From NCBI GenBank assembly GCA_900766325.1, contig CAAFVA010000093.1, positions 1 through 32,504 of the forward strand: a DNA stretch of 32,504 nucleotides, written 5' to 3'. The first letter of the stretch is position 1. Each line of letters begins with the position of its first letter. Shown piece after piece: positions 24,887 to 26,962 of the stretch. The stretch is from Bacilli bacterium (GTDB lineage Bacteria > Bacillota_I > Bacilli_A > RF39 > UBA660). The notes beneath the pieces are model-generated. The model was not told the DNA's origin and did no database searches. It saw nothing but the letters and a program-made list of their open reading frames with translations. Both the position numbers and the translations under genes were made by a program.

Positions 24887-25195
24887 CTATACGATGTTAT
24901 TTCTTTGCTTAACTTGGTAACCTGGTAAACTACTGGCTTGAGACTTTAAATTGTTGATTAGGGTTTCGTAATTATTGCTACTATTAACAATCCAACTTTT
25001 AATAGATTCCAATTCTTTTTTTATAGCTTTTAAAGTATTTTCTACATCATTAAGTGTATTTCTTTTTTTAAAATCATATGGAATATCAAAATACTTAAAA
25101 TAACTCAAAGCCTTATTGATAACGTTCAGCGAATCGTTTAGGCGAATAACACAACCACTATTTAAAGGCGTTGAATCCAAATAAACCTTTGACAT
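24887..25195 (-). CDS. 102-aa predicted helical protein, T7SS-associated (sixth gene of the cargo operon)
   Basis: The start overlaps the upstream stop (TAATG). Heptad-like C-terminal half (NTLNDVENTLKAIKKELESIKSWIVNSSNNYETLINNLKSQ). No signal peptide or TM segment. Confidence 0.55.
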   Translation of the reverse strand: MSKVYLDSTPLNSGCVIRLNDSLNVINKALSYFKYFDIPYDFKKRNTLNDVENTLKAIKKELESIKSWIVNSSNNYETLINNLKSQASSLPGYQVKQRNNIV

Positions 25196-25479
25196 TATTT
25201 ATCACTCCATTTTTTTATAATATAATTTATATTATTACCTGTGCTTTTGATCACACTGCCATACGACTTTAAACTATTACCAAAATTAATATAGATGGAC
25301 TTATCACTCATTAATCTTAAAGCATAACTATTTGCCGAATTTCCAGTCCATGCTGTGCTTGGTATTTTTTGCATCTTGTTAAACAAACTTTCAATCAAAT
25401 CAATATATTTATCGCACAAAGAAATTATTTCGTTACCACATTCTATTAACTTATTACCATCAGCCATTATTTTTGCCAT
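25195..25479 (-). CDS. 94-aa WXG100-like protein (W-T-G)
   Basis: Start taken at MAKIMADGNK (ATG at 25479), 7 nt after the upstream stop. The central motif PSTAWTGNSANSY fits the W-x-G hairpin position of ESAT-6-like proteins. Confidence 0.6.
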   Translation of the reverse strand: MAKIMADGNKLIECGNEIISLCDKYIDLIESLFNKMQKIPSTAWTGNSANSYALRLMSDKSIYINFGNSLKSYGSVIKSTGNNINYIIKKWSDK

Positions 25480-25486
25480 TTTTATA

Positions 25487-25795
25487 TTACCTATTTTCCT
25501 TTGTCTCAGCTCTTTCAATATCATCTTTAATATCGGATATTTTAGAATCAATTGAATTTAGTACGCTTCGTAAATTAGATATACAATTAGAAATACTTTC
25601 TTTTTGTCTTTTAATGTTTTCATATTTGCAAACAGAACCATTTATTAAATAATTACTCTGAAGACTAGACTGAGCCATAGATAAAGTATCTACCACATCA
25701 CTATTAGAAAGAACGTTAATCATTCGTATAACGTTCTCCCTCATTGTTTTATACTTATTTTGCCTTCTAGTAAGTTCATAAGTATTATCAAACAT
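25487..25795 (-). CDS. 102-aa predicted coiled-coil protein, T7SS-associated
   Basis: Helical, heptad-rich (..NLRSVLNSIDSKISDIKDDIERAE..). No WXG, no signal peptide. Confidence 0.55.
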   Translation of the reverse strand: MFDNTYELTRRQNKYKTMRENVIRMINVLSNSDVVDTLSMAQSSLQSNYLINGSVCKYENIKRQKESISNCISNLRSVLNSIDSKISDIKDDIERAETKENR

Positions 25796-25807
25796 AGATG
25801 TTTCCTA

Positions 25808-26293
25808 TTAATTTTTTTCTGTATATGTTTGGCTTTGTGCGGTAGACGTAAGTGATGAAGATTCCTGAGCAACATCTTGTGATAAAGTCGTATCACTTCT
25901 AGAATATGCCTCATAATATTCTTGCATTTTATCACTGTAAACCAATAATGATGAAACATATGCATCGGTAACTGCTTTTATTGCCTGAAGATATTTTTTC
26001 GTTTCAGCAGTGATTTCACCTGCTACTGCAGTACCAGCATCAGCATCAGTATTAAGGCCATTAGCTACGGTTTGAATATTCTTAACATATGCTCTTATGG
26101 CGTCTCTTATTGTTGGAACTGACGTATAATTCATACCAATAAAAGTTGATCCATTTGAAGCAACCGTATATAAAGAGCCAGCCCATCCTTGTACATTACT
26201 TCTTGCACCTGAAATCCAATCTCCTGCTCCTTGAATAATATCAGCCGCTCTACTACCTTGTATAGCATTTTGAAATTTTTGAATTACTCCCAT
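25808..26293 (-). CDS. 161-aa Ala/Gly/Ser/Thr-rich protein, by-eye paralog of the adjacent WXG100 protein with a Gly/Trp-rich N-terminal extension
   Basis: Strong RBS AGGAGG. The N-terminus is QGSRAADIIQGAGDWISGARSNVQGWAGS. The core STFIGMNYTSVPTIRDAIRAY parallels VSFTGMQTY...FRRIRDAINN of the neighbour. S/T/Q-rich C-terminal tail. Confidence 0.6.
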   Translation of the reverse strand: MGVIQKFQNAIQGSRAADIIQGAGDWISGARSNVQGWAGSLYTVASNGSTFIGMNYTSVPTIRDAIRAYVKNIQTVANGLNTDADAGTAVAGEITAETKKYLQAIKAVTDAYVSSLLVYSDKMQEYYEAYSRSDTTLSQDVAQESSSLTSTAQSQTYTEKN

Positions 26294-26308
26294 GTTATTC
26301 TCCTCCTA

Positions 26309-26611
26309 TCATTCTCTTTCAACCAAATTTTCGTCCATATCACCTATTTGTGACATAATACCATTCAATTCCGTAATTAGCATATTTTCAATCTCAGTAA
26401 CTTGGTCAGACATTCTTTGAGCACCGGTTTGAATGTTATGAATAAAATTGTCTGCTGCCGTTCCAACCCATCCTGCTCTTACAGCGTTTTCAACTTCAGA
26501 TGTGTTATTAATAGCATCCCTTATTCTTCTAAAAGTATTCATTTGCAATTCTTGTTGATATGTCTGCATACCAGTAAAACTAACTCCATGGCTTGCATTT
26601 TCAAAATCCAT
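26309..26611 (-). CDS. WXG100 (ESAT-6/EsxA-like) protein
   Basis: 100 aa, two predicted helices with a central W-V-G in VRAGWVGTAADNF. RBS GGAAGG. Located in a T7SSb context. Confidence 0.8.
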   Translation of the reverse strand: MDFENASHGVSFTGMQTYQQELQMNTFRRIRDAINNTSEVENAVRAGWVGTAADNFIHNIQTGAQRMSDQVTEIENMLITELNGIMSQIGDMDENLVERE

Positions 26612-26617
26612 ATTTCA

Positions 26618-26962
26618 TTACCTTCCTTCCTTATATTCTAGTGGGTGATCAATATTTGACGCATCCCTACTGATTTGATAAGATAAGTCTTCCATATTTA
26701 CAGCATATTTCTTCTTTAAGTTAGATAAATCTGTATTATAACTTTTTATACTACTTATTATTCTGCTATAATTATCGCTAAACTGAGAATATTTATTTCT
26801 TAATGTAGTTGCACTAACACATTCGTAGTATGACTTTGTTTCCATAACTAAATCATTTATTTTATTAAAAATGATTCTAACGTTGTTAGCACACTCAATA
26901 ATGTCAAGCATAAGTTTGTTAATTTCATTTACATTAATTGCAATATTCCGCTCTTTAACCAT
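26618..26962 (-). CDS. 114-aa WXG100-sized helical protein lacking WXG (Y-E-C at the equivalent position), first gene of the cargo operon
   Basis: RBS AAAGGAGG. The helix-turn-helix size class and ...SYYECVSATTLRNKYSQF... resemble the W-x-G...F block. Confidence 0.55.
   Translation of the reverse strand: MVKERNIAINVNEINKLMLDIIECANNVRIIFNKINDLVMETKSYYECVSATTLRNKYSQFSDNYSRIISSIKSYNTDLSNLKKKYAVNMEDLSYQISRDASNIDHPLEYKEGR

Follow-up and report, generated by a model that had tools for sequence, protein, structure and literature searches.

The question raised by this locus is what six small, tightly packed genes contribute to a type VII secretion system (T7SS) when they stand beside the gene for its ATPase and there is no toxin gene among them. 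The genes, which we call P1 to P6, occupy positions 24887–26962 of a 32,504-nucleotide stretch (contig CAAFVA010000093.1 of assembly GCA_900766325.1, from a Bacilli bacterium of the GTDB lineage RF39; UBA660), referred to below as the window, which has a G+C content of ~29%. On its minus strand they follow the genes for an EssC-type ATPase and an 84-aa YukD-like protein and precede that for a protein with an HExxH motif. A preliminary description of this DNA regarded the six products as small helical T7SS-type proteins encoded in a transcription unit of their own next to EssC, which our comparisons support, and left undecided whether they are effectors themselves or helpers of a toxin encoded elsewhere. 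On balance we consider it probable, judging from sequence comparisons, that they make up a core cassette, consisting of substrates and co-secretion partners, within a nine-gene T7SS-like variant of uncultured, low-GC gut Bacilli. This reading is built directly on the gene structure, on a promoter and terminator that belong to the operon, on the strict conservation of the genes together, on purifying selection and on superfamily signals that are weak but recurrent. What it says about a helical fold of five of the six proteins, about complex formation, individual roles and passage through EssC, and about what the HExxH protein does, is inferred.

All six open reading frames (ORFs) were recovered on the minus strand with the coordinates and lengths previously given for them. 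They are as tightly packed as had been claimed, the gaps from P1 onwards measuring 6, 15, 12 and 7 nt and being followed by a TAATG stop/start overlap between P5 and P6. The features of the operon, together with the hairpin that ends the unit preceding it, are:

27067..27098, minus strand: hairpin ending the EssC-YukD unit, 14 bp; dG -14.2 kcal/mol, z -3.6
27009..27037, minus strand: promoter of the six-gene operon, TTGTAA-17 nt-TGgTATAAT with an extended -10 (10 of 12 matches plus TG in the scan)
26618..26962, minus strand: P1, ORF of 114 aa; WXG100-like, predicted helical, no W-x-G; conserved C-terminal Y-K-E-x-R tail
26309..26611, minus strand: P2, 100 aa; WXG100-type with invariant W48-x-G50; best EsxA/TsxA candidate
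25808..26293, minus strand: P3, 161 aa; EsxAB-clan (LXG/EspC-like), predicted helical; N-terminal QGWAG extension
25487..25795, minus strand: P4, 102 aa; probably helical; no family match
25195..25479, minus strand: P5, 94 aa from ATG; WXG100-like with invariant W44-x-G46
24887..25195, minus strand: P6, 102 aa; no family match
24856..24880, minus strand: operon terminator, an 11-bp hairpin and then a U-run; dG -9.2 kcal/mol, z -3.0

The near-consensus promoter that had been attributed to the operon was found at 27037–27009, and in 10 related loci TTG(T/C)AA-17-TGnTATAnT precedes the first gene at the same position. The terminator is a real hairpin followed by a T-run, but lies at 24856–24880 and not at 24860–24876 as first placed; neither it nor the hairpin at 27067–27098 was flagged by a scan for consensus terminators, because both are AT-rich. 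The 94-aa start of P5 is the one common to its orthologues. Hydropathy bears out the earlier statement that the products have no transmembrane (TM) segments (0/6, with a maximum 19-residue hydropathy below 1.0 in all six). In three related loci (L023, L024 and L026) the six genes form a block on the opposite strand to the operon encoding EssC, YukD and the HExxH protein, and this arrangement, taken with the conserved promoter, the conservation of the genes and their dN/dS ratios, identifies the block as an independent transcription unit. A toxin ORF hidden by a frameshift, which the preliminary description had named as a possible oversight, was considered and rejected since the spacers are minimal (15 nt or less), the gene lengths recur and the same six intact ORFs are present in all relatives.

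Two further short elements around the promoter are conserved between the window (26963–27060, minus strand) and its equivalents in loci L010–L026, namely (T)GTGTAAA / CGTAAA upstream of the -35 hexamer and AAGATAAG / AAGGTAAG just downstream of the -10. They may represent an operator or an element of the 5' untranslated region that controls the cassette.

Related loci, labelled L007–L030 (L007 being a longer contig that reaches past the upstream end of the window), were gathered by a protein search with P3 (161 aa), from the contigs of its clusters and by scanning species-representative genomes, which together gave ~20 further loci; two that are more distant still, L028 and L029, were found through an exhaustive P3 profile search. 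The protein search returned 23 clusters with 50–98% identity, none of them bearing a name or a Pfam domain, and the exact window proteins are present on many metagenomic contigs. The hosts are metagenome-assembled genomes (MAGs) from the guts of humans, rabbits, goats and deer, recorded as uncultured Bacilli, Mycoplasmatota or Tenericutes, with other labels (Muribaculaceae, Clostridium sp., Paratractidigestivibacter sp.) in three of nine records. These hosts make a cell wall, to judge from the FemAB, Mur ligase and penicillin-binding proteins that they encode. A related locus on an 86-kb contig (L030; ENA contig_9948) is split into dozens of short ORFs, including FtsK fragments, which probably reflects long-read indel errors rather than pseudogenisation, and it was kept out of the evidence.

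All related loci that were recovered contain the six families in an unchanged order, at identities that fall to 31–45% in the most distant of the first ~20 loci. In L028 and L029, respectively, hidden Markov models (HMMs) of the families detect P1 with E-values of 2e-11 and 1e-20, P2 with 5e-15 and 4e-16, P3 with 5e-31 and 3e-26, P4 with 2e-9 and 1e-9, P5 with 2e-14 and 8e-20, and P6 with 4e-8 and 2e-12. Relative to the closest relatives, dN/dS lies between 0.03 and 0.24 for all six genes, which indicates strong purifying selection on each of them. The constant companions of the cassette are an FHA-bearing EssC ATPase, a YukD-like protein of 84–91 aa and an HExxH protein of ~520–620 aa; EssC adjoins the cassette in the window, as it does in each related locus whose sequence reaches far enough. 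The gene order in L028 and L029 is EssC, YukD-like protein, a 5xx-aa protein and the six genes, all in one direction, and in these two loci as well as in L024 and L026 the nine genes are flanked by housekeeping genes (prolyl-tRNA synthetase, enolase, SecG, RNase R, pyruvate kinase, PFOR). The invariable linkage to EssC, the YukD-like protein and the exported HExxH protein, with or without a toxin module nearby, contradicts the earlier suggestion of an orphan helper set. Three heterodimeric pairs had also been proposed, and gene order is all that speaks for them. An all-against-all BLASTP of the locus proteins revealed no paralogy among P1–P6 (the EssC1 and EssC2 proteins alone being related), and family-level comparison of the six with hhalign gave a single match, between P2 and P3 (probability 82%), which share an N-terminal G-x-S-F-x-G-M...I-R-D-A-I motif.

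The three companion genes are:

27348..31943, minus strand: EssC-type ATPase, 1531 aa; FHA domain, TM region at ~residues 291–320 (from hydropathy) and FtsK/SpoIIIE domains
27094..27348, minus strand: YukD/EsaB-like (TsxB-type) protein, 84 aa; its start overlaps the EssC stop and the hairpin at 27067–27098 is its terminator
23124..24803, minus strand: predicted exported or membrane-anchored HExxH protein, 559 aa; ninth conserved gene

EssC matches FtsK_SpoIIIE (7.4e-50) and FHA (4.9e-6) in Pfam, and its best match in the PDB is YukB of B. subtilis (1e-119). The 84-aa protein matches Pfam YukD below threshold (E 0.013; 16.6 bits against a cut-off of 27) and no PDB sequence, and a protein of conserved size stands in this position, directly after EssC, in all loci. 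The HExxH family comprises 68 clusters, none with a name or a Pfam domain, and Pfam gives it scattered weak zincin matches only. In alignments H257, E258, H261, E299 and E303 are invariant or nearly so. The N-terminus of the window protein has a basic segment and one hydrophobic segment (residues 14–33), in place of which distant homologues have a lipobox or a cleavable signal peptide, a few matching the KxYKxGKxW signal-peptide model. Its AlphaFold2 (AF2) model is confident (pLDDT 87, pTM 0.85), and a Foldseek search with it of the PDB gave no significant match (best E 0.36, TM-score <0.2). The gene lies inside the EssC operon in L023, L024, L026, L028 and L029. By analogy, and not by homology, with mycosin, the protein may act on the outer face. 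Genes for EssA, EssB/YukC and EsaA/YueB were absent from the called genes and Pfam annotations at every locus, a statement that covers the loci and not whole genomes.

A second ORF, of 558 aa, beside the L024 cassette was considered as a paralogue of the HExxH protein and proved to be prolyl-tRNA synthetase. Upstream of EssC in L013 (2274–4205) and L020 (2252–4282), at the place where L007 has a second EssC, there is a HerA/DUF87-type ATPase of 643–676 aa with a weak FtsK_SpoIIIE match; that it is an EssC remnant is unsupported, as BLASTP found no match between the two.

As to the six small proteins themselves, profile searches assigned none of them to a curated Pfam or NCBIfam family, and what similarity there is lies below threshold. 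A central W-x-G in a protein of ~100 aa is present in P2 (W48, G50; 100 aa) and P5 (W44, G46; 94 aa) and missing from P1 (which has Y-Y-x-C), P4 and P6; the W-A-G of P3 sits in an N-terminal extension. The motifs listed earlier hold for P2 and P5, in which W-x-G is invariant, and for the QGWAG of P3, which is nearly so, but of the 'YEC' ascribed to P1 only Y46 and C48 are conserved. P2 matches WXG100 in Pfam (PF06013) with an E-value of 6e-4 (20.4 bits; cut-off 27.3) and TIGR03930 with 15.6 bits (cut-off 44.85), and the top PDB match of its profile is S. aureus EsxA (2vs0, E 0.011), which makes it the best candidate for an EsxA/TsxA protein in the cassette. The window copies of the other five have no WXG100 match. 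Among orthologues, sub-threshold WXG100 matches were obtained for 5/10 of those of P1 (best 2e-5) and 6/10 of those of P5 (best 1.6e-4), half of the latter ten also matching EspA_EspE below threshold. P1 itself matches ESAT6_2 in NCBIfam (the 'pore-forming ESAT-6 family', NF035934) with an E-value of 4.5e-5 and 23.6 bits, the cut-off being 100, and the top PDB match of its profile is 4lws_A (E 1.5e-3), deposited as an 'uncharacterized protein' and which we take to be part of the Thermomonospora curvata EsxA-EsxB structure. Within the P1 family Y46, Y110, E112 and R114 are invariant and C48 is conserved in at least 90%. The P5 profile, too, finds weak matches of the T7SS type among PDB sequences. 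These signals are weak but recurrent, and suggest that P1, P2 and P5 are sub-threshold relatives of WXG100 proteins.

For P3, an exhaustive profile search of 1.84 billion cluster representatives yielded 417 relatives, 167 of them at E ≤1e-10 and nearly all of 150–170 aa. When 100 of these were scanned singly, weak matches were found to DUF6507 (28), WXG100 (22), LXG (19, best 9.2e-6) and EspC (15), all of which we take to be members of the EsxAB clan. The LXG model itself (PF04740) matches none of the six window proteins at E ≤1, and neither the P3 profile nor a broader one built from 100 sequences found anything significant among PDB sequences. The core of the domain (~residues 45–160) carries a V/L-x-G-E/D motif at a predicted hairpin and, after a long helix, an aromatic-xxx-D/E motif; YxxxD/E is the export signal motif of T7SS substrates in mycobacterial ESX systems. 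A Y-T-E tail is retained even in L028, and QGWAG forms the nearly invariant N-terminal extension. The AF2 monomer model is all-helical (H15–46, H56–83, H95–154) but unreliable, with a pLDDT of 44.7. Domains of the P3 type also occur in two larger proteins, P0205 (425 aa), in which a Ser/Thr linker connects the domain to an HExxH...EDFAE domain that weakly matches ATLF and M90, and P0204 (529 aa), in which it is followed by a Gly-rich hydrophobic region. On account of these fusions we regard P3 as a free-standing version of the N-terminal domain of toxin-like proteins. P3 has no toxin domain of its own, since it ends after a 25-residue tail and the next genes are P4–P6, conserved everywhere. 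The earlier treatment of P3 as a generic helical protein therefore falls short, given the recurrent LXG, EspC, WXG100 and DUF6507 signals in its family and the position of the domain at the head of toxin-like fusions.

P4 and P6 are the least informative members of the cassette. Neither has a Pfam or NCBIfam match to DUF3130/TIGR04197 or DUF3958, a single P4 orthologue matching DUF3958 at E 0.055. Against Pfam, P4 gives coiled-coil-type noise only, and its profile finds weak matches in the PDB to SAG1039 and gbs1074 (E 0.07–0.1) and to LapA4 (8gmh_C, E 0.27). P6 has no consistent Pfam match and its profile finds nothing in the PDB; its conserved residues are P39, F42, W68 and R98. For P1, P2, P4, P5 and P6 alike, weak similarity to families of helical hairpins suggests a helical fold.

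The claim that there is no toxin, LXG protein or further partner for the cassette is correct inside the operon interval, which leaves no space for a toxin ORF, but does not extend to its surroundings, where an LXG-like toxin module with its own partners lies just upstream of the window. Its edge is visible as one further feature:

32105..32504, minus strand: C-terminal ~133 codons of a second EssC paralogue (EssC1), cut by the window end; full length from L007

In L007, EssC1 has 1545 aa, is 38% identical to the first EssC and stands directly upstream of it. Beyond the window that contig (L007 1–9839) encodes EssC1, an 87-aa protein, a 1228-aa LXG-like protein, a DUF4176 protein and a pair of small proteins that carry W-S-G and W-Q-G. 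The 1228-aa protein has a helical N-terminus with V-L-A-G-E, hydrophobic Gly-rich segments, three long repeats and, at its C-terminus, an ATLF-like metallopeptidase domain (HEIGH...EDFAE) homologous to that of P0205. The module is variable, being absent from L013 and arranged differently in L020, and within the sequence covered for L013, L024 and L026 there is no toxin module beside the cassette, which is unchanged there. Since the module brings partners and an ATPase of its own, and since the cassette is unchanged without it, we conclude that the cassette is not the helper set of the upstream toxin. Nor does the cassette behave like a polymorphic toxin–immunity island.

Downstream of the cassette in L028 and L029, the two most distant loci, comes a protein (256 aa at L028 9491–10261 and 429 aa at L029 9066–10355) that joins a DUF4176 domain at its N-terminus to many tandem 'Y-K-F-D-E-N-G-V-V' repeats, an architecture that is unusual for a DUF4176 chaperone.

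If the cassette does consist of core substrates and co-secretion partners, its products would act as follows. The six would be cytoplasmic, signal-less proteins, four of which (P1, P2, P3 and P5) would be members of the EsxAB/WXG100 superfamily. The role of EsxA/EsxB-type core substrate and activator of EssC would fall to P2, probably together with P1, and P3 would be a free-standing LXG/EspC-like targeting domain whose C-terminal signal would be formed by the aromatic-xxx-D/E motif and the Y-T-E tail, with P4, P5 and P6 as its Lap-like binding partners. The proteins would assemble into helical bundles and be exported through EssC as core substrates or co-secretion adaptors, and toxins encoded elsewhere with P3-type or LXG-like N-termini would take the same route.

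Several points weigh against this reading. No window protein reaches a curated threshold in Pfam or NCBIfam, P4 and P6 are without detectable relatives outside the nine-gene system among Pfam and PDB profiles, and the monomer model of P3 is of low confidence. The pairings and the Lap-like role of P4–P6 are conjecture, export of the six proteins is putative, the hosts are uncultured organisms represented by MAGs, and EssA, EssB and EsaA were sought at the loci only and not across whole genomes. A fixed, non-polymorphic cassette would be equally compatible with a structural or apparatus role and with that of an effector. In a bolder reading, which we think rather unlikely, the nine genes are a self-sufficient, undescribed T7SS subtype in which the six proteins form one hetero-oligomer (a secreted conduit, filament, pore or obligatory multi-subunit substrate) that replaces the envelope-spanning functions of EssA, EssB and EsaA and is processed or anchored by the HExxH protein as by MycP in ESX. 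A further reading, in which some of the six are non-secreted structural or regulatory subunits of the machine that stand in for EssA, EssB and EsaA on the cytoplasmic side, for instance docked on the FHA domain of EssC, would account for the absence of those three genes from all of the loci, for the lack of a WXG100 signal in P4 and P6 and for the stoichiometric, tightly coupled genes with their TAATG overlap. However, EssA, EssB and EsaA are membrane proteins whereas the six have no TM segment, and none resembles a pseudokinase or any other known fold of a T7SS component. We hold this reading to be very unlikely.

The two possibilities left by the preliminary description we judge unlikely to about the same degree. 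According to one, the six proteins are the effectors, a secreted, membrane-active hetero-oligomer of the ESAT-6/EsxA pore-forming type directed against the membranes of hosts or competitors, which the T7SS serves mainly to export. The best curated match of P1 is indeed to the pore-forming family NF035934 (E 4.5e-5), several lineages show no toxin or immunity gene beside the cassette, and in minimal nine-gene loci the cassette is the sole candidate cargo. That match falls far short of its cut-off, however (23.6 bits against 100), no amphipathic or hydrophobic stretch suggests membrane insertion (maximum hydropathy <1.0), and purifying selection with fixed gene content is more typical of machinery or core substrates than of effectors in an arms race. 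According to the other, the cassette is a generic Lap-like helper set without a function of its own that escorts toxins encoded elsewhere, such as the 1228-aa metallopeptidase or other toxins with P3 domains. An LXG-like toxin module does lie 5 kb upstream in L007, P3-type domains do form the N-termini of toxin-like proteins, and the P5 HMM weakly matches the small WSG protein of the module (U92, E 1.6e-3). Yet the upstream toxin comes with two small partners, a DUF4176 protein and an EssC paralogue of its own, P0205 likewise is preceded by a 111-aa partner of its own that goes unrecognised by all six family HMMs, the cassette is unchanged in loci without a nearby toxin, and dedicated helpers would be expected to vary along with their toxins. 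These alternatives are not exclusive: the effector role is compatible with a cassette of core substrates and co-secretion partners, and the rivals in general overlap with it in part.

Taking the six genes as such a cassette, the system can be compared with those already known. It resembles T7SSb (S. aureus Ess, B. subtilis Yuk) in its FHA-bearing EssC, in the ubiquitin-sized protein encoded right after it, in P2, which is nearest to S. aureus EsxA, and in having further small genes downstream of essC, as with the esxC, esxB and esxD genes of S. aureus (reportedly described by Yang et al. 2023, as cited in PMC11217815). It differs from T7SSb in that EssA, EssB and EsaA are encoded at the locus in no lineage, in that there are six fixed small genes in place of one core EsxA with strain-variable partners, and in that an exported HExxH protein is the ninth gene and the small genes have their own conserved promoter. 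With LXG toxins, their Lap1/Lap2 (DUF3130/DUF3958) targeting factors and the DUF4176 chaperone it has in common the L/V-x-G hairpin motif of P3, the weak LXG matches in 19 of 100 family members, the P3-type domain at the head of toxin-like fusions, small proteins encoded alongside, and the DUF4176 proteins after the cassette in L028 and L029. Unlike those systems, P3 has ~160 aa with neither a toxin domain nor a Pfam LXG match, P4 and P6 are not DUF3130, DUF3958 or TIGR04197 proteins, and the cassette is conserved and not polymorphic. The likeness to mycobacterial ESX lies in the grouping of several EsxAB-clan proteins, with sub-threshold EspC matches in 15/100 members of the P3 family and EspA_EspE matches in 5/10 of the P5 family, in the aromatic-xxx-D/E motif of P3, which resembles the YxxxD/E export signal, and in a putative membrane or surface protease as a conserved component, analogous to MycP. 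In contrast to MycP, that protease would be an HExxH protein without a significant solved-fold match and not a subtilisin, there is no EccB, EccD or EccE here, and EssC is T7SSb-like and bears FHA.

Subtypes c–j of the T7SS were defined by Garrett, Higginson and Palmer 2024 from RefSeq (PMC11217815), whereas the present hosts are MAGs. The components described there are TsxA, TsxB and TsxC together with kinases, phosphatases, FHA proteins, Ig-like giants, EspG-like chaperones and a beta-propeller or AAA+ ATPase, and the toxin loci of these subtypes carry WXG100-related partner genes (PMC11217815). Our system shares with them, and especially with the 'simple' T7SSg and the clostridial T7SSf, a TsxA/TsxB/TsxC core (WXG100, YukD-like, EssC-like) with few extras. 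None of them has a peptidase-like component or a six-gene cassette of small proteins, the words 'peptidase' and 'metallo' being absent from the text; T7SSg lacks FHA and has the beta-propeller protein TsgL, and T7SSf has a PPM phosphatase, TsfJ and an AAA+ ATPase (PMC11217815). No such subtype accessory (kinase, PPM phosphatase, TsxJ, TsxI, EspG-like, beta-propeller, AAA+) was found in or beside the nine genes. A full-text literature search for further named subtypes (T7SSk etc.) or for T7SS in these lineages turned up nothing beyond PMC11217815. Because subtypes c–j have neither the peptidase-like component nor the six-gene cassette, and no later subtype names were found, the arrangement appears not to be among the published subtypes a–j and, judged by its components, to be an undescribed variant.

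What is known of T7SS biology comes from a few cultured models with a conserved core of one or two WXG100 proteins, the other small helical proteins being strain-variable escorts of toxins. Here, six small proteins are as conserved as the ATPase, and the canonical membrane partners are missing from the locus. Specialists expect diversity among these systems, and what is unusual, as well as accessible to experiment, is the combination of a fixed six-protein cassette of EsxAB type, an exported HExxH protein that matches no solved fold, and no EssA, EssB or EsaA at the locus. Should the nine genes suffice for secretion, they would constitute a compact T7SS suited to reconstitution in a surrogate host. 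Such a system would offer insight into the minimal needs of the machine, into what EsxAB-type proteins do beyond escorting toxins, and into how a free-standing LXG-like domain relates to toxin targeting. The locus also adds a secretion system to the poorly known, uncultured gut Bacilli or 'Mycoplasmatota' of humans and animals.

Among the other genes of the window, all on the minus strand, those at 20701–21803, between the T7SS block and znuA/mraZ, comprise an ORF6N-domain gene and a truncated RhuM-family gene (106 aa, compared with 155 aa on other contigs), and look like a small, decaying mobile or phage-derived insertion. Two overlapping ORFs at 14539–15172 (143 and 88 aa), one of which has a PD-(D/E)XK 'transposase' domain, have the appearance of an Rpn/PDDEXK_2 gene split by a frameshift. 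At 8386–14163, two tandem hybrid histidine kinases (616 and 628 aa, each with HisKA, HATPase and REC domains), a protein with REC and HD_5 (HD-GYP-like) domains and an Hpt protein make up a multistep phosphorelay that adjoins the cell-division (dcw) cluster.

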